Assembly (NCBI GenBank): GCA_016215455.1
Contig: JACRJP010000003.1
Span: forward strand, 124 to 64,123
From: Candidatus Tayloriibacteriota bacterium
GTDB taxonomy: Bacteria; Patescibacteriota; Minisyncoccia; Phycocordibacterales; PALSA-1337
Reading direction: 5' to 3'
Length of the DNA: 64,000 nucleotides
Every line of letters starts with the position of its first letter. The first letter of the stretch is position 1. A model generated the notes under the pieces. It was not told where the DNA came from and made no database searches. It worked only from the letters and a program-made list of their open reading frames with translations. Positions 2,192 to 64,000 of the stretch are shown piece by piece. The position numbers were made by a program, and so were the translations under genes.

Positions 2192-2932
2192 CTATAATGT
2201 CGTTGCGGTGACAATAACCGTTGTACTATAACTTCCTGCATCCTGAATCTTCGAAGTACCTATAGCTGCTCGATACTTAATGGTGGTAGTTGCTCCGTTT
2301 GGATGGTTTGAAGATGCTCCTGTTGCAACAATTTTATTTACCGTAGAGAGACCGTCCCAACACTTATCAACCGTGTCTAAACCTCCTGCATTACAAATTG
2401 ATCCATTGTCACGAAAACGTGCATCGACATCGACTCCTTCAGGAGTGAAACCGAACCTCGATTCGGTTGCTGCATAGGTGTAATCGTAATCAGGATCAGC
2501 TCCACTTGGTGCATAGTCATCAAAACTTGCACCACCTGGACCTTGCAATGCAGGACTTGTTACCGAACGAACTGAAAGTGTATACCCTGCCGCATTGTCA
2601 GTAAGAACTGTCCATGTACTTGAAGCAGTACTAAAACCTCCAGCCAAACCATTCAAACTTGGAAGAGCGTCATCATTTGGAGAAGTAATCGAAATATATG
2701 AAGATTGCATTTGTTGATATCCTGCATACATTGAGTACGATGTACTTGAAGAAAAACCAGTACCAATTTCTCCCATCGTCGCATCATCTTTATAGTTCGT
2801 ACTCTGACTTGGTGCTCCACCGAAATTAACTGAATCTGAATTCATACGATAGCTTGAACTTCCCATAACAAAAGCTTTGAGACTTACCGGCACTATGAGT
2901 GTGAGTATTGTTATAAGAAGAATAAGTCGCAT
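2192..2932 (-). CDS. Secreted beta-rich protein, WxL-domain-like (paralog of 3961-4629)
   Basis: 246 aa. Signal peptide. Shares with the 3961..4629 product the motifs TW(T/N)V.T(D/N)N..GYTL(S/T)V and (T/L)KYR near a Thr-rich C-terminus (...TTVIVTATTL vs ...TATITATATTI). Confidence 0.5.
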   Translation of the reverse strand: MRLILLITILTLIVPVSLKAFVMGSSSYRMNSDSVNFGGAPSQSTNYKDDATMGEIGTGFSSSTSYSMYAGYQQMQSSYISITSPNDDALPSLNGLAGGFSTASSTWTVLTDNAAGYTLSVRSVTSPALQGPGGASFDDYAPSGADPDYDYTYAATESRFGFTPEGVDVDARFRDNGSICNAGGLDTVDKCWDGLSTVNKIVATGASSNHPNGATTTIKYRAAIGTSKIQDAGSYSTTVIVTATTL

Positions 2933-2940
2933 ATGTAATG

Positions 2941-3948
2941 TTATACTTTTCTCTTAAATTCAAATCGACTTGCAATGTAGTATCCCAAACCAACAACGAA
3001 CACGATCACACCAAAGAGAGCTGCGAGGATTTTCCATGGAATTACCCAGAATGTGACAACTCGTTCATCAACGATATTGCCGTAGCCTCGATTCAAGTGA
3101 AGCGTTGCTTTGTAACGTCCAATGAGATACACCTTATCCCATTCAACACTACGATAGCGGAGAGAGTTAGGAAGTGAGAAGTAAGCATCGACTGGAAGTG
3201 TCGTGACTTTCCGGCCGAATGTATTGGTAATATCAACAGTACCAAATGGTACAAGGTGGATAGAACCACTGTTATTGTAGAGAATTTCAAAGGTTGTAGG
3301 TCCTTGCTGTCGGATAAATGAAGTACTTGGCTGGACTCGAAATTCTTCAACTGATCCAGATTCATTTGCATCTCCATTTACTCGAACAAAGAAAAGAACT
3401 CCCAATCGAGAAATTATCTTATTTTGAGCAACTGTTTGAGAATTCTGTGCAGACTGTTCATCTTTATCTGGTTCATTCGAGATAAGAACTGATGAATAGA
3501 ATCCTCCTGGCTGTGCGTCTTGTGGAACATTGATCGATATAGGAATATTGATTCGCTGTCCAAATTCAAGAGTAAACTCACGTACCTCAGGAACAAGGTT
3601 GTCCTTGAATGAGTACGGACTCTTATCATTTCCAAGAAGCACGACCGGCTTATCAATATCTCGTGAACCCACGAAGTCTTCCACTTCTATCTTAAAGTGT
3701 ACCTTTCGTTTAATACGATTTGTAATACTGATACTTCGTGTCACCGATTCTCCAGGATTAAGGAACACCTCTACCTTACCCGGTTCAAGAACAAAGTCGT
3801 TTTGTTCAGTCACAGCTACAGGAGCAAGTGTAACCGCGTGAACATACTGAGGTATCGCAACAACACCGAAAGCAACCATGAGACTTATTCCCAATCCGGT
3901 CATATATGAAATTGTTCGAGAATGTGTAGTCATAATAATCTTCTTCAT
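2941..3948 (-). CDS. Cell-surface protein with DUF916/DUF3324-like architecture (CscA-like): signal peptide, two beta-sandwich regions, C-terminal TM anchor plus basic tail
   Basis: 335 aa. N-terminal signal/TM (GLGISLMVAFGVVAIPQYVHA). C-terminal WKILAALFGVIVFVVGLGYYIASRFEFKRKV anchor. Internal acidic/Gln-rich linker. Sits between the two WxL-like paralogs, as in Firmicutes csc loci. Family assignment is from pattern recall, not a search. Confidence 0.45.
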   Translation of the reverse strand: MKKIIMTTHSRTISYMTGLGISLMVAFGVVAIPQYVHAVTLAPVAVTEQNDFVLEPGKVEVFLNPGESVTRSISITNRIKRKVHFKIEVEDFVGSRDIDKPVVLLGNDKSPYSFKDNLVPEVREFTLEFGQRINIPISINVPQDAQPGGFYSSVLISNEPDKDEQSAQNSQTVAQNKIISRLGVLFFVRVNGDANESGSVEEFRVQPSTSFIRQQGPTTFEILYNNSGSIHLVPFGTVDITNTFGRKVTTLPVDAYFSLPNSLRYRSVEWDKVYLIGRYKATLHLNRGYGNIVDERVVTFWVIPWKILAALFGVIVFVVGLGYYIASRFEFKRKV

Positions 3949-3960
3949 ATGAAGAATTGA

Positions 3961-4629
3961 TTAGATTGTTGTTGCTGTTGCTGTGATTGTTGCAGTGTAG
4001 GTACCAGAGTCAATGTAAATACCTTTTTGTTCGACTGCATAACAAAGAGTTGTATCAACTCCTGATGTTGTTGTAGTAGAAGAACGAGTTGCAATTGTTG
4101 GACTTGCTGATGTAGTAAATCCTCGGTACTTCAATGTTGTTGATGGAGTACTTGTTGCACCACATGAGACACCTCCTGTAGCTGTACCGTATGTACTTGT
4201 GTTTACATCAGTTCCAAAAGCACTGTAACCAAATTCTGCTCGACCTGTTGGAATCGTACTCCACAATTCCGGTGTAGTTGTTGTTGCAAAGTCATTCACA
4301 TACTGTGAACCACTAACACGCATTGCTGGGTTTGTTGAAGCCGCAACAGTGAGTGTGTATCCAAGTACATTATTTGTCTTCACGTTCCATGTAGTAGTTG
4401 CAATTGCTGTGTTCACCGCAGCACCCAATGCTGTACTCATTGTAGTATCAGCTGGACTGGTGATCGTAATACCTGTATCAACTTGCAATGTAACGACAAC
4501 ACTATCAGTTGCTGTCGCCGCATCAACAAGATTTGGTTCAAGATATATACCACTTGCAATAAGCACTAATGTAACAATGAGAGACATTCCCAAAGTCTTC
4601 TTTAATGTTGTTATTGTAAATTGTTTCAT
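3961..4629 (-). CDS. Secreted beta-rich protein, WxL-domain-like (paralog of 2192-2932)
   Basis: 222 aa. Signal peptide. Conserved TTWNVKTNNVLGYTLTV and TLKYRGF motifs. Extremely Thr/Ala/Ser-rich. Confidence 0.5.
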   Translation of the reverse strand: MKQFTITTLKKTLGMSLIVTLVLIASGIYLEPNLVDAATATDSVVVTLQVDTGITITSPADTTMSTALGAAVNTAIATTTWNVKTNNVLGYTLTVAASTNPAMRVSGSQYVNDFATTTTPELWSTIPTGRAEFGYSAFGTDVNTSTYGTATGGVSCGATSTPSTTLKYRGFTTSASPTIATRSSTTTTSGVDTTLCYAVEQKGIYIDSGTYTATITATATTI

Positions 4630-4732
4630 GTTGATAATTTTTATTCCTAACTACTGAATGATGAGAGCACGACCTCTCTTCACATTCATGTGTCGTGAAC
4701 CAACTCTTGGTCCACCACACATGAACACGAAG

Positions 4733-5620
4733 CTACTTTTTCACAGGCACAACAACATACATATATTTGTCATTCGTTTCTTTTTTAAATACTGGCTGAA
4801 TAACACCTGATACTCCTGTATCATCTGACCAGATTTTTACTTCATCAGAAAAATTTTCCTGAACTGTTGTCTTTACCTGTGTATCAGTAACAACATCTCC
4901 TGATGAGGCAACAACGACCATACCTTGATACGTACCGTTACTCATGCAGTAGTCATTAGCTGAATGACATACTGGCTCACCACCGAATAGTGGTGAGAGG
5001 GCTGCATACTCGATAAGAGCAAGACGATTGACGAGAGTTACAATTGGTACGACAACATTTGCAACAAGACCTACCTGAGATGAAGGAGTAACACCGGCAG
5101 GTGTTCGAATAACTTCAATATTTGATGTCGCAACTGTTGGTGTTGGAGATGTTCGTACTTCACTCAATGTTTGAGACTCTGATGAAGTTAGGTATGAAGG
5201 TAATGCCACGATCGAAAGAAGGACAAAAGTAAAAACACCGACAGCAACCATAAGTGCCGCAGGAGAGATTTTTGGAATTGGAAATGAAATATGATGTGAT
5301 GAAGATTTCTCTTGAATAGTATTTGTAGTAGGTGGAGTTGTTTTCTCTGAATCAATTTTTCGAACCATTACTTCATGAACATTGAGAGGTTGTGCTACGG
5401 GCTGACTAGGCACTGAAATCTTTTGATCGAGTGTTCGAACATTCTTCTCGTAATTGAGGATGTCTTGTTCAGCAACAAACCACACTCGACCAACTCGGCG
5501 AGAATCAATTTTTGATCCTCGACAAAGCTGACCGATGTAGTCAGATGTATATCCTGTGAGAAGCGACGCGCTCTTCGCAGAAATATATTTCTTGCCTTCG
5601 AAAATAAATTCCGGGTGCAT
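4733..5620 (-). CDS. Bitopic membrane protein with N-terminal cytoplasmic HTH (excisionase/MerR-like HTH_17) and extracytoplasmic Thr/Val-rich domain; putative membrane-tethered transcriptional regulator
   Basis: N-terminus KYISAKSASLLTGYTSDYIGQLCRGSKIDSRRVGRVWFVAEQDI resembles HTH_17. Single TM (ISPAALMVAVGVFTFVLLSIVALP). Large C-terminal periplasmic/extracellular part. Confidence 0.45.
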   Translation of the reverse strand: MHPEFIFEGKKYISAKSASLLTGYTSDYIGQLCRGSKIDSRRVGRVWFVAEQDILNYEKNVRTLDQKISVPSQPVAQPLNVHEVMVRKIDSEKTTPPTTNTIQEKSSSHHISFPIPKISPAALMVAVGVFTFVLLSIVALPSYLTSSESQTLSEVRTSPTPTVATSNIEVIRTPAGVTPSSQVGLVANVVVPIVTLVNRLALIEYAALSPLFGGEPVCHSANDYCMSNGTYQGMVVVASSGDVVTDTQVKTTVQENFSDEVKIWSDDTGVSGVIQPVFKKETNDKYMYVVVPVKK

Positions 5621-17175: not shown

Positions 17176-20100
17176 TTAATACGTAACTGATCGTAGTATC
17201 ATCTTGCGTGTAATTGGACCGAAATAACCAACAGCGGGTGTAATATTGTTAGCCTTCTGATAACGCACAAGTGCCGCGCGGGTAGCTGGACCAAAATAGA
17301 AAGTTTCATTCCCTGGTGAACCATACCCGGTAGTACTCACAACAAATCCTTGTGAATTCAAAAACTGCTGCAGTATACGTACATCAGCACCAGAAGAATT
17401 CAAAGTAAGACTACGCACAAAGGTAGTAGGTTTAATAGATGGTGAAACAATTTTAGCAGTAGCAACTACTTGAGGTATAGAACTAGTAACCTCTATTGTT
17501 TTGGTCGCTGTAGAATTAACCCGCTCACCTGCTCTACCTCCACCAGAACGTGACGGGGATACAGTTGGTGTTGAAACTGGAGCAGCAGCTGATACTGTAA
17601 GAGTAAATTCTTGAGTATGGTAGAAAGTTTGAGCAGCAGAGAGTGTATCAATGATTTTCACCCGGATCGTTGAAGAAGTGGCAGAAGTTGGAGTACCGGT
17701 AATGCTACCTGTACTCGTATTAAGAGAAAGACCTTCAGGAAGCGTTCCTGAGACGAGTTCGTATGTAACCGTTCCTTGAGAGGAGGTGGCAGTGAAACCT
17801 CCGGAATATGCGGTACCTACAGTACCCGAAGAAAGAGTATCTGAAGCGAAATCAATCATATTAAAGAGAAGGATGCGGCCATAACTATCACTTACAAAGA
17901 GTGTACGGGTAGTTGACGCAAAACTAATGGAACGATTACCATCAAATGAACTGGCTGAGAGCGTACTTTGACCCGTCTGAGTGAAATTTGGTTTACCAAT
18001 AACTGCTACAGCATTTTCTCCATTACTTATCGAATTCACATCAAAAACCATAATGCGATAGTTCCCATTACTACCTGTTGAATCCGATACGTACAGAATT
18101 TTATTCTCATTATCAAATGCCAGATCTTCAACCAACTCAAACTTACTCTGTGTGGTACCTATCGTTGCAGTAGTAAAATTACTTTGTCCCAAAACATACG
18201 ACGCAGACATACCGGTGCTGATACCCGAACTTAAATCGTATACCATAACACGATTCGAATCTCCAATATACAAATAATGAGAGTCCGGATCATACACTGC
18301 ACCATTTGTATTACTCAATGTATCAGCTGTCGGATATCCTCCGGTACCAGCTCCCGTAAGACTTCCTTCACCGAGAACAAAGGAAGCGGGCATATCAGTA
18401 CTCACTCCATCTGAAATATCAAATACGAGCACACCTCGACCCTGATTGTGATCGAAAACGTACAGATAATCATTGTAGTCATCCACTACTACATTATAGG
18501 GATAAAACCGAGTAGCACTCTCTCCTCCACCATATGTATTGAAACTACTTGCCCCAAGTATGTAGGAAGCATTCATGCCGGTGGTAATCCCTGAAGAAAG
18601 ATCGAAGACTCGTATACCGTACTGATTGCCTCCTTCTTGAACAAATAGTAATTTCTGTTTTGAGCTATAGGCAATGTGTTGAGCGTTCGACAAGTGATCT
18701 GGAGTCGTGCTTCCTATTCCTTCTCTATATATAGAGTCAGAACCGAGCACATAATCCGCAACTTTATTAAGGAGTCTGTTATTCGTATCAAGGTTAAAAA
18801 CAAGGACTCGAGCCTGACCATCAAGTACGAATAGACGGTGATCAACCTCATCAATAATTAACTGAGCAGTATCAAGAAAACCCAAACTTAAATTTGCATC
18901 ATTCTCTGCTGGTTTGGTGAAAGAATCTACACCGTTTTCTTTTTGGCCCAATACATCAACAGCATCTTCCCCATTAGTAATTGATGCTACGTCAAAAACA
19001 AGAACTCTGTTGCTTCCTGAATCAGTAACAAAAAGTTTACTTCCATAATAATGCAAATATGGCTGACCTATTGTCGAAGCATCAGTATTGTACGAATCAA
19101 TACTCAGGACATCGTTCTTCTTATCAATATTGCTCACAAAATCATCTTGACCCAATACATTAACCGCTGGTTCACCATCGCTCAAGGTAGCGATATCAAA
19201 GACTAAAACACGATTCACCGTCCCGACATAGAGTCTTTGTCCTATCAAATCAAGAGCAAGTGAATATACCGAACTTGAAAGTGTCGAACTATTGACCGTA
19301 GTACTTGTTGCAGCAAAATTCGCCTGACCGAGCACATAGATTGCATCAGGATTATTCGATATAATGCCAGGATTAACATCGAATACAGTAACTCGACCAC
19401 CATCACCTGCATAGCTTCCTACGTAGAGATAATCTGTATCTGTGTCGTATACGATACCTTGTGCCTGAAGGGTTGAACTGGCATTAAGAGAATCAAAATC
19501 TCCACCTTCAGTATCAAAATCGGGCTGTCCTATTACAAATGAAGCATCCATTCCATCAGTAATTCCCACCGACAGATCAAATACTGAAATTCTTCCAAAG
19601 CTATTATCAGCATAAAAAAGGCGATCATTATTTGGGTCATATGCCATTCCACCTGTATATGAAGTATTTGAAGCTGAAATCGTACCCTCTCCTGCTGTAG
19701 TAAGGTTTGGTGCACCAAGCACATGTATAGCATTTTCACCATTTGTAATGGTAGCGACATCAAATATCAGAACTCTATAGTTACCACTATCGCTCACAAA
19801 AAGTCTTTGACCTGATTCATCAAGTGCTAATTGTGTCGAAGCACCATTTTGGTAAAAATTTGCAGCAGTAACATCTTCAGAACAAAAATTTGAAACAAGA
19901 TTTGACCCACCAAGAACATAGTCAGCGGTATCATCTTCAAGTTCATTGCTTGTATTAAGACTGAAGATCAATATTCTACAGTTTTGTCCATCAGCGATAT
20001 AGAGACGATGATTTGTTCCGTCAAGAACAATACCACCAGGATCACTAAATCCAACCGCATTGGGTCCTTTACCATATGAATATTGATTTGTGAAATTCGG

Positions 20101-20214
20101 ACTTCCGTCTGAATTAAATTGCCCAAGTACATCAGAAGCTTGAAAATCAGCACGGGATTCTATGGGTAAAACGGACACAAACAACAGAATTAAAAAGATA
20201 AACAATCTGTACAT
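17176..20214 (-). CDS. Large secreted NHL-repeat beta-propeller protein with He_PIG Ig-like domain and C-terminal peptidoglycan-binding domain
   Basis: 1012 aa. Signal peptide. About 10 or more NHL-like repeats (NHRLYIADGQNCRILIFSL, GQRLFVSDSGNYRVLIFDV, DRLFYADNSFGRISVFDL...). SGTLPEGLSLNTSTGSITGTPT (He_PIG). Ser/Thr/Pro linker. C-terminal ADVRILQQFLNSQGF...GPATRAALVRYQKANNITPAVGYFGPITRKMI = PG_binding_1. Confidence 0.7.
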   Translation of the reverse strand: MYRLFIFLILLFVSVLPIESRADFQASDVLGQFNSDGSPNFTNQYSYGKGPNAVGFSDPGGIVLDGTNHRLYIADGQNCRILIFSLNTSNELEDDTADYVLGGSNLVSNFCSEDVTAANFYQNGASTQLALDESGQRLFVSDSGNYRVLIFDVATITNGENAIHVLGAPNLTTAGEGTISASNTSYTGGMAYDPNNDRLFYADNSFGRISVFDLSVGITDGMDASFVIGQPDFDTEGGDFDSLNASSTLQAQGIVYDTDTDYLYVGSYAGDGGRVTVFDVNPGIISNNPDAIYVLGQANFAATSTTVNSSTLSSSVYSLALDLIGQRLYVGTVNRVLVFDIATLSDGEPAVNVLGQDDFVSNIDKKNDVLSIDSYNTDASTIGQPYLHYYGSKLFVTDSGSNRVLVFDVASITNGEDAVDVLGQKENGVDSFTKPAENDANLSLGFLDTAQLIIDEVDHRLFVLDGQARVLVFNLDTNNRLLNKVADYVLGSDSIYREGIGSTTPDHLSNAQHIAYSSKQKLLFVQEGGNQYGIRVFDLSSGITTGMNASYILGASSFNTYGGGESATRFYPYNVVVDDYNDYLYVFDHNQGRGVLVFDISDGVSTDMPASFVLGEGSLTGAGTGGYPTADTLSNTNGAVYDPDSHYLYIGDSNRVMVYDLSSGISTGMSASYVLGQSNFTTATIGTTQSKFELVEDLAFDNENKILYVSDSTGSNGNYRIMVFDVNSISNGENAVAVIGKPNFTQTGQSTLSASSFDGNRSISFASTTRTLFVSDSYGRILLFNMIDFASDTLSSGTVGTAYSGGFTATSSQGTVTYELVSGTLPEGLSLNTSTGSITGTPTSATSSTIRVKIIDTLSAAQTFYHTQEFTLTVSAAAPVSTPTVSPSRSGGGRAGERVNSTATKTIEVTSSIPQVVATAKIVSPSIKPTTFVRSLTLNSSGADVRILQQFLNSQGFVVSTTGYGSPGNETFYFGPATRAALVRYQKANNITPAVGYFGPITRKMILRSVTY

Positions 20215-57845: not shown

Positions 57846-58178
57846 ATGTCAGAGAAAGATGAACGATTAAAGGATGTATTGAAGACTCTTGCCGCTGAAT
57901 TTGTTCAGCGAGAGTCGAATGGTATCTCCCTTATCACTATCACTGACGTTGCAATCGCAGATCGTGGAGGTCGTGCAACTATTTACTTTACCGTACTACC
58001 TGAAGACAAAGTAAAAGGTGTACTCGACTTCTTGAAGCGTAAGCGTGCTGAATTTCGTGACTATGTCACTGAAAAATCACGCATTGGTCGTATTCCTTTT
58101 TTCGATTTCGCACTGGATATCGGAGAAAAGAATCGACAGCGCATCGACGAGATTTCAGGTACCATCGCAGCAAATTGA
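57846..58178 (+). CDS. rbfA: Ribosome-binding factor A
   Basis: 110 aa. RLKDVLKTLAAEFVQRE...ITITDVAIADRGGRATIYFTVL. KH-like RbfA pattern. Follows infB as in the nusA-infB-rbfA operon. Confidence 0.75.
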   Translation: MSEKDERLKDVLKTLAAEFVQRESNGISLITITDVAIADRGGRATIYFTVLPEDKVKGVLDFLKRKRAEFRDYVTEKSRIGRIPFFDFALDIGEKNRQRIDEISGTIAAN

Positions 58179-58250
58179 CGTAGTGGCGAAGTTGGTTAAC
58201 GCGACAGTCTGCAAAACTGTTATGCGCCGGTTCGATCCCGGCCTACGTCT
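58177..58250 (+). tRNA. tRNA-Cys (anticodon GCA); overlaps rbfA stop codon by 2 nt
   Basis: Acceptor GACGTAG/CTACGTC, anticodon stem ACAGT/ACTGT, loop CTGCAAA, T-arm GCCGG-TTCGATC-CCGGC, discriminator U. Confidence 0.7.
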
Positions 58251-58269
58251 CACTTCTAACTAAAAGAAT

Positions 58270-58893
58270 CTATATCTGAAAATCATCAGGTGGTACCAAC
58301 TTAAATGTCGCACTATCTCTCTTTGCTTGATTGTATTCTGCAATACTCTTACACCCAATCTGACGAAGTGCACGAAGAAGATATCCGTATGCCTGAGCAG
58401 TACCTTCTATAAAATCTTTTATCGACAAATCTTCGAGTTCAGGATTCTGTTCAAGCATATACGAAATATTCTGTGCATAAGAAAATATTTTTAATTTAGG
58501 AAATACAGAGAATGTCTTACTATCAAGTAAGTTTTTAACAGTTCGAGGAACCGTTAAATCAATTTCTTGTGGATCTTTTGCAGAAAATTCTTCTTTTAAT
58601 ATCCAAGGCTGTTCTGATTTCATCAATGAATGGTGTGCTCGGAGAAAAGGCTCAAAAGAAAAATCATCTTTCATGAGAGTCGCACCCGGTGTTTCAAAAT
58701 TATTATTAATATAATCGACGTAATTTTGAGCGCAGATCTTTGTTAATCGCTCGTGATATTGAGAGCTATACTCTTGATGTGAATCCTGTGTACTACCAGG
58801 ACGTATTTCACCCGATACAGTTGTTTCAAATTGACCAGATCTTACTGGGTCAGGGTTAAGAGGATCAAAACCTTCATTAAATTTCGATATCAT
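58270..58893 (-). CDS. Hypothetical cytoplasmic protein
   Basis: 207 aa. AT-rich native-like composition. No recognisable domain. Confidence 0.45.
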   Translation of the reverse strand: MISKFNEGFDPLNPDPVRSGQFETTVSGEIRPGSTQDSHQEYSSQYHERLTKICAQNYVDYINNNFETPGATLMKDDFSFEPFLRAHHSLMKSEQPWILKEEFSAKDPQEIDLTVPRTVKNLLDSKTFSVFPKLKIFSYAQNISYMLEQNPELEDLSIKDFIEGTAQAYGYLLRALRQIGCKSIAEYNQAKRDSATFKLVPPDDFQI

Positions 58894-58932
58894 GTTTATA
58901 TTTTATCACAAGTATAGTATAACTATATACAA

Positions 58933-59020
58933 GCCCGGGTGGTGGAATGGTATACACGAGAGACTTAAAATCTCTTGCCTCTTATACGGCTTGTGGGTTC
59001 GAGTCCCACCCCGGGCACCA
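58933..59020 (+). tRNA. tRNA-Leu (anticodon UAA), type II, CCA encoded
   Basis: Acceptor GCCCGGG/CCCGGGC, anticodon stem AGAGA/TCTCT, loop CTTAAAA, long variable arm, 3' ACCA. Confidence 0.8.
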
Positions 59021-59121
59021 TTTCAAAATACTATATAGTTGCATCTGTATTAAAATTATTGCATACTTTTCCAAGACCAGTTTCTTGACCTTCCTGACCT
59101 CACACTCAACACACCGTCTGC

Positions 59122-59751
59122 ATGAAACCTGCATCACCTCTCTGTGTCCAGGCCTTTACAAAACCTGGTCAGTCTCGTCGGATCCGCAATGCAGCAGCTG
59201 CTCAAATGAGCCCTCTCAGGCGAGCCCTGCACAAGCAACACCTCGGGTATTTTAACCCGGCGACACTCCATGATCACAAGTGCGCTCAATACGCGCGACT
59301 TCTCAACGAATACATTCGTGCGAAAGTGCCCCTCATCAAAGGTTTTGGTGATTGGATCTTTTTGGGAACCCTTCTGGTCTGCAGCCTGACGTTGGGGTAT
59401 AACGGGTATTTTCTTTGGTCGCTTGGTTTTCTTTCAATCATGACGTTGACTCTTTGGAGCTCTTACACTTCTCGCCAAAAAGCGGCCTATCGAGAATTTG
59501 TTCGGTTGTATAACTGGCAAGAAGCATCTCTCTACCGATCGAGATGCTTCGCCTGCCCTAGGGTTGACGAATTGATCGAATCTCTCGAAAACTACTTCGA
59601 GGTCCACTGTCCAACAGCTGTGATGCGTATCGAGTTTCTTGGGCCCGACCCGATTCTCTGGGTCATGGACCACGAAACTCACGAAAAATACGCGATTGCG
59701 GCATGGAAAGATCCTAACGATCCTACCCCGATCATTGCTCGGGTGTGGTAA
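59122..59751 (+). CDS. GC-rich hypothetical protein with two TM helices, between tRNA genes (start uncertain)
   Basis: About 55% GC. Hydrophobic helices (DWIFLGTLLVCSLTLGY, FLWSLGFLSIMTLTLW). No known domain. Confidence 0.35.
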   Translation: MKPASPLCVQAFTKPGQSRRIRNAAAAQMSPLRRALHKQHLGYFNPATLHDHKCAQYARLLNEYIRAKVPLIKGFGDWIFLGTLLVCSLTLGYNGYFLWSLGFLSIMTLTLWSSYTSRQKAAYREFVRLYNWQEASLYRSRCFACPRVDELIESLENYFEVHCPTAVMRIEFLGPDPILWVMDHETHEKYAIAAWKDPNDPTPIIARVW

Positions 59752-59879
59752 AGAGACTTCTCATGAATTCAGATGTTTGCTTTTTTATTAACACTATTCT
59801 CATAATCTTATTGCGCACATTGGTTTTTTTTGGTATATTCCACCAAGCTATTTAACAATTTGGTTTCCAAATAAAATAT

Positions 59880-59955
59880 GCACCCATAGCTCAGTTGGTA
59901 GAGCATCCGCCTCTTAAGCGGTTGGTCGTAGGTTCGAATCCTACTGGGTGCACCA
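59880..59955 (+). tRNA. tRNA-Lys (anticodon CUU), CCA encoded
   Basis: Acceptor GCACCCA/TGGGTGC, D-arm GCTC-AGTTGGTA-GAGC, anticodon loop CTCTTAA, T-loop TTCGAAT, 3' ACCA. Confidence 0.8.
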
Positions 59956-60002
59956 GGTTGTAAGAAAAGATCGGTCCGTGTTTCTAAAGTTACTACATTC
60001 AT

Positions 60003-60084
60003 ATGCCGGGATGGCGAAATTGGCAGACGCACTTGCCTTAGGAGCAAGCGGGGTAACCCATGGAGGTTCAAGTCCTCTTCCCGG
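60003..60084 (+). tRNA. tRNA-Leu (anticodon UAG), type II
   Basis: Acceptor GCCGGGA/TCCCGGC, anticodon stem CTTGC/GCAAG, loop CTTAGGA, long variable arm, T-loop TTCAAGT. Confidence 0.8.
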
Positions 60085-60172
60085 CACAATCAAGATACTC
60101 AACACTTAAAAATGGCTTCAATAAGCCATAAATTTACCTTACAACATCCATAGACATCCGCCAATAGATCTA

Positions 60173-60202
60173 TTGACATGTACCAATGTTATATGCTATA
60201 AT
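60173..60202 (+). promoter_or_regulatory. Sigma70-like promoter (TTGACA-N18-TATAAT-AGTA) followed by a hairpin-rich ~140-nt leader
   Basis: Exact hexamers. The leader 60205-60343 contains nested inverted repeats (GGTTCTCT...AGAGATCC; GAGC-ATTA-GGCTC; TCGCT-TGT-AGCGA). Confidence 0.45.
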
Positions 60203-60343
60203 AGTACCAGAAGATTGGATTAGGGGTTCTCTGAGCATTAGGCTCAGATGAGCCTACAGAGATCCTTGAAACATTCGACCTTCGACTAGTGCGTCGCTTG
60301 TAGCGATGTTAGTCAACCAAAAATTCGGTTAGCTCGACATACC

Positions 60344-61402
60344 ATGCCTACTCCTGCCGCTCCCGCCTCCCCTGCCTCGACCCCTGTCACTGGTCCGAAG
60401 TATACGGCCGCCCAAATGGCGGATAGCAACTTCCATCCGGACCAACTGAATGACAAGTCAGGGAAAAAGTTAACAGGTGGCGCTCTTGCCGCCCGTAAGG
60501 TTGCTCTCCTGGATTTCCAGGAAGCTGCACTTTCTTTTCCATCCGCTCCTGCTGCAAGCGCTGCTCCGGCAGTTCCTGCTGGAACGCCTGCCGCTACTCC
60601 TACCCTGCCGGCTACGCCCTCAGGGGGAGTTTCGCGGACCCACATCATGTGGGCGATCGTGATTCTCCTCTTGGCGTTGCTTGGACTGACTGGCTGGCTC
60701 GCAAAGTCCTACCTGGACAAGCGCACGCCTGCCGCCTCTTCACCCGTCGGTGGAGCAAGTGGTGGTCAACCTGTTGCGTCGGAAAGCAATGGGATTACTG
60801 GAATCATCCCCGCCGGCTCCGTCACGAACGTGACGGAAGACGTTGAAAAACGTCGAATCACCCTCACTGGCGACGTTCTCGTGACCAACGTCACGAAGCG
60901 GATTCACACCACTACGGTCACAAGCCCTGGTGGTGCTGGAAATCCTGGAGGGTTCATCCTGAACCAGACGATCCAGCAGTTCAACGGTAGTGGTCAATCG
61001 ACCCTTCCCACCAATGACTGTCGGACAAATCGGTTCGGCGGCGTGAATCCCAGGATGTCGCCCGAGGTTGCTCGGCTGGCCCAACAAGGCAAGCTGAAGA
61101 CCTACGAAGCATCCGAAGACGGCACCTTGCCCCAGTGTATTCATGTGCCGAGTGGTGAGGCTGCGGTGATCCTCATGCCGGAACACATGGACCTCGTCAC
61201 TCGCCAGCTCAACCGGCGCAACATTGCTGTCTACTTCGACGAGCGCACGCTCGAAGAGGAAAAGCAGCGAATCGCGAGTGGTGTTCCCTCAATCTCGGAA
61301 CGAGTCTACCTCGTCAACCGAGACCAAGGACTCACACCTGCGCAAGTCGCACTGCTGTGGAGCAACGAAGGTTCGAATGAGGGTTTGGTTGCTGCTCGAT
61401 GA
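60344..61402 (+). CDS. GC-rich Pro/Ala-rich bitopic membrane protein (cytoplasmic PA-rich N-terminus, one TM, extracytoplasmic domain)
   Basis: About 60% GC. PAAPASPASTP / APAASAAPAVPAGTPAATPTLPATP low complexity. TM IMWAIVILLLALLGLTGWLA. No known domain. Confidence 0.5.
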   Translation: MPTPAAPASPASTPVTGPKYTAAQMADSNFHPDQLNDKSGKKLTGGALAARKVALLDFQEAALSFPSAPAASAAPAVPAGTPAATPTLPATPSGGVSRTHIMWAIVILLLALLGLTGWLAKSYLDKRTPAASSPVGGASGGQPVASESNGITGIIPAGSVTNVTEDVEKRRITLTGDVLVTNVTKRIHTTTVTSPGGAGNPGGFILNQTIQQFNGSGQSTLPTNDCRTNRFGGVNPRMSPEVARLAQQGKLKTYEASEDGTLPQCIHVPSGEAAVILMPEHMDLVTRQLNRRNIAVYFDERTLEEEKQRIASGVPSISERVYLVNRDQGLTPAQVALLWSNEGSNEGLVAAR

Positions 61403-61497
61403 GCACACCTACCCTCGCAGAGGCCGCGGACAAAGTACTAGCAATAGCTACGATGTCCCCGGTCTTTTTATTTATATACAGAGCCATAGATATACTA

Positions 61498-61528
61498 TTG
61501 ACTATACAGCTCATATTATGGTATAATA
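61498..61528 (+). promoter_or_regulatory. Sigma70-like promoter (TTGACT-N19-TATAAT-AGTA)
   Basis: Same TATAATAGTA extended -10 context as the promoter at 60173. Confidence 0.35.
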
Positions 61529-61587
61529 GTATAGGAAAACAACCGAAATCAAGGCCGTGTGGTCTTTGATAACCCCATAGCGATTTT

Positions 61588-62736
61588 ATGAACACACTCG
61601 AAAGATTAGTGGAGTATCTCTACTGTCTACTCAACGGTATACCCCAGACGGTCCCTGTAAATGGAACCGTCGACAACGGTGTCGAAATATTGACGCCGTT
61701 AAACAAGGTCAAAAAGCACCCCATGAATGCTTCGTGGGTATGCGTAATAGCTGGGTGGATCACCCTCTTCCTACACGTATGGGTGCCTAAAGCATTCATT
61801 ACAGGACTCATCTACCACAAGTTTCCCTCGACTGTAAATTACGGTTCGGTTGTGGAAACACTGGGCTGGATTATTGGAGGACTGTGTTTGATTGCAGCAC
61901 TCAAGACCTACCTGTTCGAAGCCATTTTTGTGGCAACCGAAACAGGAAAAGCTCGAATCGTTGAAGGGACTTTTCTGAGCAAGATCAATCCCAAACCCTT
62001 CACCTATCAAGACACCGGCGTTGCTGGTGAACGAGAATATGTTGGACCAGGACTGAAATTTAAGTGGTTCACCAACAAAGTTGATGACAAAAAGGTAGCA
62101 AACCTCGACGTTGTCGTTCTCGATCTGATATTTACTGATCTAGTCACCAAAGACAACTATGTGGTAGGTGAAATCACCACAAGAGTGACCTATCGGACCT
62201 TGTTAGGGTTTGGTCTTCTCAGCCGCTTCACGCGTGCAACAAAAGAAGATCGCGAAAAGCTCATTAGGGCGAAGATCGAACTGTTCTTGCGGCGGGAAGT
62301 AGGTCAGTATCCCTACCTCCAGTTCATGAACTTGGCATTCAAAGAAGGCTTTACCAGCCAACTTCGCGCGAAGATGAAACAAGTCTTCGGCGGTCAAGAC
62401 TATCTGTCTGAGCTCGAGCTGCAATTGGCAATTACAACCGACAACCTCGAAGTAATCGGGTTTGTTCTCACCAAGAGACAACTTGCTGCATTTGAGACAC
62501 AACGCATTGCAGGTCTCATTGCAGAAGTGACTGAAAGATTCTACCGTCTGTGTGGTCTCAGTGACACACAGATGCCTGCAAACCTCACTCCAGATCAAGC
62601 GGCACGAATCGCCCAACAACGACTTCAAGTCATTGTCATGGTCGAACGAATGTTCGCCGATCCCAAGAAACGCCAAGACGTCATCTTTTCGGGTGGCGCT
62701 GGTGGTGTGCGGGGTGGCGGACGGATTGCAGTCTAA
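61588..62736 (+). CDS. SPFH/band-7 (stomatin/prohibitin-like) domain membrane protein
   Basis: N-terminal TM helices, then ARIVEGTFLSKINPKPFTYQDTGVAGEREYVGPGLKFKWF...ANLDVVVLDLIFTDLVTKDNYVVGEITTRVTYR typical of the SPFH core, coiled-coil region, Gly-rich C-terminus. Confidence 0.55.
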   Translation: MNTLERLVEYLYCLLNGIPQTVPVNGTVDNGVEILTPLNKVKKHPMNASWVCVIAGWITLFLHVWVPKAFITGLIYHKFPSTVNYGSVVETLGWIIGGLCLIAALKTYLFEAIFVATETGKARIVEGTFLSKINPKPFTYQDTGVAGEREYVGPGLKFKWFTNKVDDKKVANLDVVVLDLIFTDLVTKDNYVVGEITTRVTYRTLLGFGLLSRFTRATKEDREKLIRAKIELFLRREVGQYPYLQFMNLAFKEGFTSQLRAKMKQVFGGQDYLSELELQLAITTDNLEVIGFVLTKRQLAAFETQRIAGLIAEVTERFYRLCGLSDTQMPANLTPDQAARIAQQRLQVIVMVERMFADPKKRQDVIFSGGAGGVRGGGRIAV

Positions 62737-62754
62737 CCTTCAACGACACACCTT

Positions 62755-63216
62755 ATGGCAGAGGAAAAAAACTACAGAGATGACCTCAAGTCATACTCCC
62801 CCGTAATTGACTGGCTCAAAAAGGCTGTCTACTGGGGAGGCGGCATCATTACCGTCGTAGTCCTGTGGGATCTATGGACAGCAACAAAGGCTCCAAAGAG
62901 CTTCGCGGAACGCCGAGAGGTTCGTTCGGCTATCGAAGCAGGATTACCTGAAACGGTTCAAGACTTCAGAGTCGACCGAAATTGGCAGCAGAAGATTCTG
63001 GTAGGCAAAATTGCCAACTACGAATTCAATATGCTCCAAACGGGTGTCATAGGACAAGTGGTTGTGAACAACGACTTCTCTCGTGCCTACGACTTCGCTA
63101 TCGGGACGGACATTGATCTTGGATCACAACAAGTAACCTCATTGTCGTTTCGGCTTCGGCCAGACCAGGAGGTTATAGCAGCGCCGATGTATTTGCGTGT
63201 TATACGGAGACAGTAA
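62755..63216 (+). CDS. Small membrane-anchored protein, possibly NfeD-like partner of the SPFH protein
   Basis: 153 aa. One TM (VYWGGGIITVVVLWDLW) plus about 100-aa beta-rich soluble domain. Immediately downstream (18-nt gap) of the SPFH gene as in SPFH-NfeD operons. Confidence 0.3.
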   Translation: MAEEKNYRDDLKSYSPVIDWLKKAVYWGGGIITVVVLWDLWTATKAPKSFAERREVRSAIEAGLPETVQDFRVDRNWQQKILVGKIANYEFNMLQTGVIGQVVVNNDFSRAYDFAIGTDIDLGSQQVTSLSFRLRPDQEVIAAPMYLRVIRRQ

Positions 63217-63243
63217 ATCCGAAATACACAACATCGGAAAGCA

Positions 63244-63285
63244 CGGGGGCCGGACGCTTACGCGACCGGCCCTCCTTTTATTTTA
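63244..63285 (+). terminator. Rho-independent terminator
   Basis: GGGGGCCGG-ACGCTTACGCGA-CCGGCCCTCC followed by TTTTATTTT. Confidence 0.65.
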
Positions 63286-63314
63286 TAAAGTCACATCTAA
63301 TACTCTCGATATTT

Positions 63315-63614
63315 TTAGAAATTTGCAGGTACTCCGATAGTTGAGAGTACAAAACGAATGATTCCCCATACCGAGACCATGATGAACATCCCTACAACTC
63401 CCCAGAGAATATGTTGTGCTCCCTCTGCCCGTTTTGCACCATCAGCTTCAGAAATAAAATACTGATAGAGCCCCCAAATGAAGATAACTGTAGCGAGAGC
63501 AAAGACAAGGTCAACAATAGGGTTCACCACATTATCAAGCACCTTAGACAAAATCCCCGCAACGGCGGGGTTTTGACTTGTTTGAGCGTATGCAGTTGCA
63601 ATAAAGCTCACCAT
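63315..63614 (-). CDS. Small two-helix membrane protein, VirB2/TrbC-pilin-like (paralog of 63621-63986)
   Basis: 99 aa. Hydrophobic helix - charged loop (SEADGAKRAEGAQ) - hydrophobic helix. Start immediately after the stop of the upstream paralog. Confidence 0.4.
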   Translation of the reverse strand: MVSFIATAYAQTSQNPAVAGILSKVLDNVVNPIVDLVFALATVIFIWGLYQYFISEADGAKRAEGAQHILWGVVGMFIMVSVWGIIRFVLSTIGVPANF

Positions 63615-63620
63615 ATAGAT

Positions 63621-63986
63621 TTAGCGAATACGAACGTCTGGAATTGTTGGGAACTCCTGGTAAGGAACCTGCTGGTTACTACCGAAGTTGAATGATCGTC
63701 GGAGAAGTCCTACAAGACCCCAGATAGAGAGGATGAGGAAGAGACCGATAATACCGTAGATAACCATAGTCTTTCCTTCTTTCTTCTTGTCTTCGTCACC
63801 TGCGATAATGTACACCACGATAGCATACACCAAATAGATAACAGCAAACGAAATGAAGATTGGAATAAGAGCATTACCAATACTTACAAGCTTCGCAAGC
63901 AAACTATTAACATCAGTAATTTGCTGAGCTGACGCAAGCACTGGAAACGCTGAGGCAAAAACTGCTAGACCTAAAATTTTTTTCAT
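63621..63986 (-). CDS. Small secreted two-helix membrane protein, VirB2/TrbC-pilin-like
   Basis: 121 aa. Signal peptide MKKILGLAVFASAFPVLASA, mature part starting QQ..., helix - loop (GDEDKKKEGK) - helix. Confidence 0.4.
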   Translation of the reverse strand: MKKILGLAVFASAFPVLASAQQITDVNSLLAKLVSIGNALIPIFISFAVIYLVYAIVVYIIAGDEDKKKEGKTMVIYGIIGLFLILSIWGLVGLLRRSFNFGSNQQVPYQEFPTIPDVRIR

Positions 63987-64000
63987 AATAATTTGTTACG

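Follow-up and report, generated by a model that had tools for sequence, protein, structure and literature searches.

Two VirB2-like pilin genes of a Candidatus Tayloriibacteriota bacterium belong to a five-gene array linked to a solute-binding protein

VirB2-like pilin arrays and related systems

Tandem arrays of divergent VirB2-like pilin genes are already documented in Patescibacteria. A survey listed 441 arrays of 2-11 genes in 383 assemblies, with a mean identity of 25%, and found them above all in Microgenomatia and Saccharimonadia (Quinonero-Coronel et al., 2025, PMC12102498). An essential pilin series lies in SEML1_0006-0019, a type IV secretion system (T4SS) locus of Southlakia epibionticum ML1 (Wang et al., 2023, PMC10633639), and a 'Sec secreted array' was noted in Nanosynbacter lyticus TM7x, the arrays having been reviewed in 2025 (PMC12857230); the role of these pilins has been called completely unknown in the field (PMC11665869). 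Here, we investigated two adjacent VirB2-like pilin genes at the edge of a stretch of 64,000 nucleotides (called the window) from a Candidatus Tayloriibacteriota bacterium (contig JACRJP010000003.1, positions 124 to 64,123). The window was extended by the Logan contig L001 (13,041 bp), which is 100% identical to window positions 60060-64000 and reaches 9.1 kb past the edge. As three further pilin-family genes sit just past this edge, the window holds the last two genes of a five-gene array. Array genes are numbered g1 to g5 in the order of transcription, so that the window pair is g4 and g5. On the same strand, g1 is preceded by genes for a solute-binding protein (SBP) and a small class-I methyltransferase (MTase).

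A VirB2 array was defined in the survey as 2-11 tandem PF18895 or PF04956 genes of low identity (PMC12102498), and the present locus comprises five such genes with pairwise identities of 17-23%. It resembles the published arrays in its PF18895 proteins with some PF04956, its tandem arrangement, its location on a chromosome of the candidate phyla radiation (CPR) and a context without relaxase. Unlike them, it lies neither within nor close to a virB4 cluster, it is tied to the methyltransferase and to a SBP_bac_1/SBP_bac_8 protein that is fused to g1 in some genomes, and the order of its paralogues is conserved in many genomes. A link to an SBP is not mentioned in the main text of the survey (PMC12102498). 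In the available literature, we found no account of the invariant MTase-SBP-pilin module, of fusions of the SBP to g1, of a conserved order of the paralogues, of a promoter within the array or of a g5 without leader; these represent modest extensions of what is known. The context is a useful addition in that the array, in a large lineage of Paceibacteria, is detached from virB4 and locked to an SBP-fold protein, which offers a testable handle on array function: a binding module displayed on, or docked to, a pilin assembly.

The array proteins share with the TrbC/VirB2 pilins (A. tumefaciens T-pilin; PDB 8cue, 8fai, 8exh) the small size and two hydrophobic helices joined by a short loop, and g4 also a predicted Sec leader ending in A-Q. 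The loop is longer here and of mixed charge, the host is monoderm, no virB operon is adjacent, and five distinct paralogues take the place of a single major pilin. The Mbov_0395/MMCAP2_0565 family of pilin-like conjugal transfer proteins from integrative and conjugative elements (ICEs) of Mycoplasma likewise consists of small two-helix proteins and belongs to a monoderm MPF-FATA-type system, but the Mycoplasma genes lie in mobile ICEs beside VirB4-like genes and the array genes do not. Two further systems are comparable by analogy only. Major and minor pilin sets of type II secretion and type IV pili, such as GspG-H-I-J-K, are also fixed sets of about five divergent paralogues in a conserved order with one apart in expression, and minor subunits of these systems carry or position an adhesin; these prepilins differ in their unrelated fold and leader, their single N-terminal helix and their processing by PilD. 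An SBP-fold surface protein encoded in a monoderm together with relatives of conjugation genes has its counterpart in PrgZ and TraC, the SBPs of enterococcal pheromone plasmids, whose genes lie beside those of a Gram-positive T4SS. PrgZ differs in that it is an SBP_bac_5 protein that binds a peptide pheromone and feeds the host Opp permease, and its gene is not known to be adjacent or fused to pilin genes.

Family, context and anatomy of the array

A preliminary description, made from the window alone, had noticed two adjacent minus-strand genes of 121 and 99 residues, and both are present exactly where it had placed them (Table 1). They correspond by exact match to MBI5126472.1/HZA80_01785 (g4) and MBI5126471.1/HZA80_01780 (g5) of a Candidatus Taylorbacteria metagenome-assembled genome, where GenBank labels both as 'hypothetical protein'. 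Their proposed membership in a VirB2/TrbC-type pilin family was borne out by PF18895 (T4SS_pilin; gathering threshold 26.6 bits), which is passed by g4 (44.1 bits) and g5 (41.1 bits) as well as by g1 (32.2 bits) and g2 (38.1 bits), g3 being slightly under the threshold (25.9 bits). The sister gene g2 additionally passes PF04956 (TrbC/VirB2; threshold 27.9 bits) with 28.9 bits, and its orthologue in the related locus L006 reaches 32.2 bits. Because the g4 family is homologous to the g2 family in hhalign (98.4% probability, E = 1e-14), this match ties g4 and g5 to VirB2/TrbC. A custom hidden Markov model (HMM) of the family, run against 709 open reading frames (ORFs) of the window, recovered g4 (E = 8e-45) and g5 (E = 1e-30) with the next best ORF at 0.36. 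Thirty-one homologues of g4 were found; relatives in a collection of 5.8 billion proteins all carry PF18895, and those with a name are called 'pilin' by NCBI and come from Candidatus Paceibacterota/Pacebacteria. A profile search of 1.84 billion cluster representatives (50% identity) returned 17,984 family members at E <= 0.001. The PF18895 pilin family is very large, and the finding as flagged is ordinary for CPR bacteria. In more than 40 genomes, orthologues of g4 and g5 take the same place in the array. The top NCBIfam match of g2, g3, g4 and g5 is NF045849 (Mbov_0395/MMCAP2_0565), at 17-26 bits and hence under the 40-bit cut-off.

Upstream of g4, contig L001 carries on the same strand g3, g2, g1, the SBP gene, the methyltransferase gene and gyrA, in that order, followed by a metallo-beta-lactamase-fold gene, a second methyltransferase gene and an S1-domain gene. 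The nearest solved relatives of the SBP are carbohydrate-binding SBPs of ATP-binding cassette (ABC) importers. VirB4-, VirB6- or VirD4-like genes, which had been suspected just past position 64000, were not found in these 9.1 kb, nor was any other T4SS family, the flank consisting of the pilins, the SBP, the methyltransferases, gyrA and the other genes named. In the window itself, a Pfam scan of all ORFs of at least 200 residues gave no VirB4, VirD4, VirB6 or TrbL; these ORFs match ClpB, topoisomerase I, IF-2, RbfA, SerRS, DnaX, Dus, DprA, ParB, MiaA, alanine racemase, ABC transporters, peptidases and other housekeeping or envelope genes. Six contigs with g4 orthologues (37-61% identity), one of which ends within its array, display gyrA, the methyltransferase, the SBP, up to six pilin genes and convergent genes of unknown function, and no T4SS genes were found within 10 kb in them. 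The array locus is a conserved chromosomal core locus and not a conjugative element; the suggestion that it could be part of a conjugative apparatus was not upheld in this conserved housekeeping neighbourhood.

When the SBP was used as a probe against one genome per GTDB species, 48 loci were obtained. In 43/43 loci that extend downstream and whose SBP shows an identity of 34% or higher, pilin-family genes come within a few tens of bases after the SBP gene; four to seven per locus is the usual number, with lower counts where a contig breaks off. Downstream of two unrelated SBPs (25% identity), pilin genes are absent. The small methyltransferase precedes the SBP in every related locus, and in about ten loci gyrA is absent upstream with the MTase-SBP-pilin unit still intact. 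The unit also lies on the 876-kb chromosome OY969557.1 of a relative. Since the linkage survives the loss of upstream gyrA, methyltransferase, SBP and pilins form one unit that holds while its flanks change.

To type the paralogues, each array protein was scored against the five reference paralogues g1-g5. The exact order g1-g2-g3-g4-g5 was found in 19 related arrays and, with one additional g4-like copy, in six more; the typing margins were large (e.g. 88 versus 20 bits). The hallmarks of each paralogue are kept by position: g1 has its Cys pair, g2 is TrbC-like, g3 has a long low-complexity tail, the leader of g4 is classical and that of g5 is nearly missing. Judged from these sequences, g1-g5 are old, non-interchangeable paralogues, and as each position keeps its own orthologue and features, old and non-redundant roles are indicated rather than rapid turnover.

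The pro-pilin layout ascribed to both proteins in the preliminary description is complete for g4 and holds for g5 in the two helices and the loop, but not in its signal peptide of only ten residues. In g4, a Sec-type signal peptide is predicted to be cleaved after ASA, which would leave Gln21 as the first mature residue. The leader pattern MKK...[FS]AQ with a hydrophobic stretch is kept in 29/32 aligned g4 relatives, and hhalign sets the AQ of the g4 leader against the AAAQ of the VirB2 precursor in what is a weak match. An amphipathic stretch between the leader with Gln21 and the first transmembrane segment (TM1) is followed by TM1, the charged loop, TM2 and a C-terminal tail of 26 residues. 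Two hydrophobic helices with a short polar loop are conserved in the 32 sequences of the g4 alignment, in which W89 and G90 are invariant. The AlphaFold2 model built from these 32 sequences has helices at residues 3-22, 26-61 and 65-99 (mean predicted local distance difference test score, pLDDT, 77.6). The core of g5 is as in g4, with two hydrophobic helices and a charged loop; its leader MVSFIATAYA (window 63585-63614) is devoid of a basic n-region. Many g5 orthologues begin at the segment preceding TM1, with an in-frame stop one to four codons upstream. Because so many orthologues have no leader, g5 probably enters the membrane without Sec signal-peptide cleavage. The two genes happen to share one frame here and orthologous pairs elsewhere do not always do so, on which ground read-through of the g4 stop into an in-frame g5 was rejected as a conserved feature.

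Fusions provide further information on the array. The SBP is fused in frame to the g1 module in the protein clusters P0146 and P0135 (560-568 residues; 3 and 8 member sequences) and in the locus L023; residues 456-554 of P0146 are 47% identical to g1 (E = 1e-25), separate g2, g3, g4 and g5 genes come after the fusion, and it was seen in contigs of independent samples. As a Rosetta-stone fusion, this argues that the SBP works physically together with g1. Single proteins with several pilin modules were found in four clusters (P0155, P0164, P0190, P0290), in which one signal peptide is followed by 2, 3, 6 or 8 linker-joined hairpin modules with no internal leaders. Such poly-pilins fit with both termini of each module being outside and the subunits being packed side by side. 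At the g1 position, two related loci (L004 7237-8370 and L039 11243-13864) encode proteins that combine the pilin hairpin with extracellular domains, either fn3/purple-acid-phosphatase-N or Ig-like (He_PIG, Big_9, cadherin-like).

The gap between g3 and g4 is the longest of the array (70-110 nucleotides in most genomes), whereas g4 and g5 are separated by 2-9 nucleotides in most related arrays, which is consistent with co-translation of the pair. A TG-extended -10 motif (TGnTAyAAT) lies 27-46 nucleotides before the g4 ATG in 16/38 distinct spacers, compared to 1.0 +/- 1.0 in shuffled spacers, and a plain -10-like hexamer occurs in 33/38 (13.1 +/- 2.8 in shuffles). Because this motif is conserved in the g3-g4 spacers, g4 and g5 probably have a promoter of their own besides read-through from upstream. 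The promoter signal emerged only from the comparison of spacers from many genomes; a consensus promoter and terminator scan of the array gave nothing above shuffles. At the other end of the array, the segment 63225-63320 (96 nucleotides) folds with -35.9 kcal/mol (z = -5.0 versus 200 shuffles), and its G+C-rich hairpin is probably a shared, bidirectional terminator; the consensus scan missed it because its loop is long. Within the g5 coding sequence (window 63555-63570), 45 nucleotides after the start, there is a further hairpin, CCCCGCCGTTGCGGGG, of six perfect G+C base pairs, after which a T-rich run follows.

Proposed assembly and possible function

On balance, we slightly favour the view that g4 and g5 are stored in the membrane as subunits of a heteromeric VirB2-type surface filament equipped with an SBP-fold binding module. 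VirB2-type pilins are exported by Sec, and reside in the membrane as hairpins with a cytoplasmic loop, until a machine that contains VirB4 extracts them and polymerises them with lipid; in F-pili, like in T-pili, the subunit termini point outward. By analogy, g4 would be exported by Sec with its 20-residue leader cut after ASA and would remain in the cytoplasmic membrane as a hairpin of two helices, whose ends would both face outside and whose charged loop would face inside. g5 would insert likewise without a real leader by the YidC route, as does the c subunit of the ATP synthase, whose short N-terminal tail is able to cross via YidC. Expressed from their own promoter, g4 and g5 would probably be the most abundant subunits, and g1-g5 would come together in a single heteromeric structure on the surface, a VirB2-type filament or stalk being the likeliest form. 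Given subunit termini that face outward, g1 would carry the SBP-fold module and g3 its Gly/Ser/Thr/Pro-rich tail on the outside; in the T-pilus the termini are outside and the loop lies in the lumen (10.1101/2022.09.25.509369). A VirB4-type T4SS with its genes elsewhere in the genome would power membrane extraction and polymerisation. Of 3,035 Patescibacteria genomes, 2,417 have VirB4, VirB2-like genes are near virB4 in only 1,135/1,948 assemblies, and virB4 in Paceibacteria tends to lie near dnaA (PMC12102498). The filament would finally serve contact with, or capture from, a host cell. In Southlakia epibionticum the pilin series is essential (PMC10633639; PMC12857230), and in cultured Paceibacterales T4SS pilins rank with the most strongly expressed genes that have no known function (PMC10936435). 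Both published results support a structural part in contact with a host, and the 'host-interaction apparatus' of the preliminary description is plausible by extension from other Patescibacteria. Leader cleavage, topology, filament formation, VirB4 dependence and the role in host contact are steps that we infer by analogy with these systems.

A more far-reaching proposal, which we put forward only tentatively and consider rather unlikely, is a new surface organelle of Paceibacteria in the form of a heteromeric VirB2-type filament or stalk in which each paralogue has a fixed place and g1 shows the SBP on the surface. Possibly, one paralogue would then occupy each strand of the five-fold layer seen in T-pili and F-pili, and the carbohydrate-type SBP borne by g1 may act outside as an adhesin or nutrient catcher. 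The SBP::g1 fusions, the kept gene order, the outward termini in known pili and the fusions to external domains are compatible with such an organelle; arrays with 4, 6 or 7 genes occur as well, as do fusions of 2-8 modules. If true, the organelle would tie T4SS-type pilins to substrate capture and not to the transfer of DNA or effectors.

Several observations weigh against a VirB2-type filament. PF04956, the TrbC/VirB2 profile with which the two window proteins were to be checked, is not matched by g4 or g5 in the Pfam scan, even at E <= 1. The hhalign comparisons with A. tumefaciens VirB2, for which a single sequence recovered from PDB 8cue/8fai was used, are weak for the g4 family (E = 0.034, probability 1.5%) and for the g2 family (E = 0.0026, probability 11.7%), although both insignificant alignments are in register from the leader site through TM1 to TM2. 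A profile search of the PDB with the g4 family returned no pilin (top match FliL, E = 0.1), and fold searches are not discriminating for such a simple fold. In 73 kb of this genome, no VirB4, VirD4 or VirB6 came to light, and no T4SS ATPase or channel family was seen among ten large ORFs taken as a sample from the +/-10 kb flanks of some 45 related arrays, where part of the other large ORFs matched housekeeping genes of the window; eight of the ten were SBP_bac_5, RNase J, chaperonin, RecJ, a TPR protein, an aminoacyl-tRNA synthetase, a vault-like protein and a histidine kinase, and two had neither a Pfam family nor a Walker A motif. Poly-hairpin fusions of up to eight modules are a typical trait of membrane hairpins that form rings, ATPase c subunits among them, and are not known among conjugative pilins. 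Lastly, a visualised filament of PF18895 proteins has not been reported for any organism in the available literature.

The main rival explanation is a T4SS-independent membrane complex, in which the five hairpins would form a fixed hetero-oligomeric ring or bundle that docks the SBP for uptake or sensing, with VirB2 ancestry retained and pilus polymerisation lost. We regard this explanation as unlikely, if worth serious consideration. The invariant neighbour of the array is the SBP and not a T4SS ATPase, the SBP is sometimes covalently fused to g1 and is closest, among solved structures, to carbohydrate-binding SBPs of ABC importers, the fixed set and order of paralogues suggest a defined stoichiometry, the fusions of 2-8 modules resemble fused c-ring subunits, and no T4SS gene was found within 10 kb of about 45 arrays as far as their large flank ORFs were sampled. 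Against this, no permease or ATPase partner is conserved beside the module, a transporter made of two-helix hairpins and an SBP is without precedent, the homologous arrays of Saccharibacteria lie inside a T4SS cluster and are essential together with it, and the very high expression in Paceibacterales suits a structural polymer.

For Patescibacteria arrays, it has also been proposed, by analogy with the VirB2 paralogues of Bartonella and Anaplasma, that the genes are interchangeable major pilins that diversify the surface against changing hosts or defence (PMC12102498). The low identity of 17-23% among the paralogues and the additional g4-like copy in some genomes agree with this published interpretation. 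However, position-specific orthologues are kept across genomes whose SBPs are only 34-55% identical, and each position has its own features, from the Cys pair of g1 to the nearly leaderless g5. This positional conservation argues against 'antigenic variation' for this lineage and renders a variation cassette improbable here. That g4 and g5 are unrelated small membrane proteins (a holin, a bacteriocin or immunity protein, or a generic DUF) which mimic the pilin layout is scarcely credible: they show weak sub-threshold matches to assorted membrane families, but PF18895 is passed by a wide margin, the best holin match of g4 and g5 in the Pfam scan (Phage_holin_10, E = 0.74) is not significant, no PHROG family was matched at E <= 0.01 by any of the five array proteins, and the neighbourhood is one of conserved housekeeping genes and not a prophage. 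A non-pilin identity is essentially excluded; the holin or bacteriocin families raised as an alternative in the preliminary description were, like phage families, matched neither in the Pfam nor in the PHROG scan.

Features of the locus and other observations

The features of the locus are compiled in Table 1.

Table 1. Features of the pilin array and the linked genes. Positions refer to the window unless a contig is named.
Feature	Position	Strand	Size, basis or remark
g4, VirB2-like pre-pilin, array gene 4	63621..63986	-	121 residues; ORF and PF18895 match; 31 homologues
g5, VirB2-like hairpin protein, array gene 5	63315..63614	-	99 residues, 10-residue leader; ORF and PF18895 match
g4-g5 spacer	63615..63620	-	6 nucleotides between g4 TAA and g5 ATG; read from sequence
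g4 Sec-type signal peptide (predicted), residues 1-20	63927..63986	-	MKKILGLAVFASAFPVLASA; sequence reading and alignment conservation
g4 TM1, ~residues 39-62	63801..63872	-	hydrophobic stretch; AlphaFold2 helix 26-61, pLDDT 83-90 there
g4 charged loop	63771-63800		GDEDKKKEGK; between TM1 and TM2
g4 TM2, ~residues 73-95	63702..63770	-	contains W89-G90; AlphaFold2 helix 65-99
g3		same as g4	211 residues; long Gly/Ser/Thr/Pro-rich tail
g2		same as g4	142/131 residues; TrbC-like member
g1		same as g4	156/134 residues; Cys pair (CDG...C-D/N-F) before first helix
SBP		same as g4	426 residues; SBP_bac_1/SBP_bac_8, N-terminal hydrophobic anchor or leader
Class-I methyltransferase (MTase)		same as g4	172 residues; stop overlaps SBP start
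MTase-SBP-g1..g5 module	L001 5700-9786; window-equivalent ~63315-67400
SBP::g1 fusion loci	L058 10001-11683; L059 650-2332; L023 9995-11788
TG-extended -10 motif	L001 9068-9076 = 64025-64033, just past the window		TGATACAAT; 38 nucleotides before g4 ATG
G+C-rich hairpin (GGGCCGG...CCGGCCC)	63245..63275	.	between array end and convergent gene 62755-63216; probable terminator

The array is faced by three convergent plus-strand genes (window 60344-63216; 352, 382 and 153 residues) that encode membrane proteins without a significant Pfam family. They were considered as T4SS parts and rejected, as no Pfam family matches them significantly and jackhmmer searches of 55 related loci gave no homologue. 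Only in a near-identical strain (L057) do these positions carry genes of about the same size, the match being one of size and place. The region is a variable one beside the conserved one and lies outside the module. Between it and rbfA, four tRNA genes (Cys-GCA, Leu-TAA, Lys-CTT and Leu-TAG) are located at window 58177-60087, together with an ORF of 207 residues and two overlapping ORFs of 102 and 209 residues, none with a Pfam family; the 102-residue ORF overlaps the Leu-TAA tRNA gene, and these ORFs may not all be genes.

Elsewhere in the window, a predicted surface protein of 1,012 residues (17176-20214) contains NHL repeats, a He_PIG Ig domain and a C-terminal peptidoglycan-binding domain, and another of 474 residues (759-2183) contains an fn3-like domain. 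The latter was considered as a pilin fusion and rejected on account of its single C-terminal anchor helix and its family HMM score (E = 0.36). Four consecutive genes at 2192-5620 (246, 335, 222 and 295 residues) lack a Pfam family, and their neighbours encode an M23 peptidase and a protein that binds peptidoglycan. Contig L040 (2288-5107) of a related CPR genome encodes a protein of 939 residues that matches the shoulder domain of the Major Vault Protein (2e-22) and the Vault_3 repeat, an unexpected family of eukaryote type.

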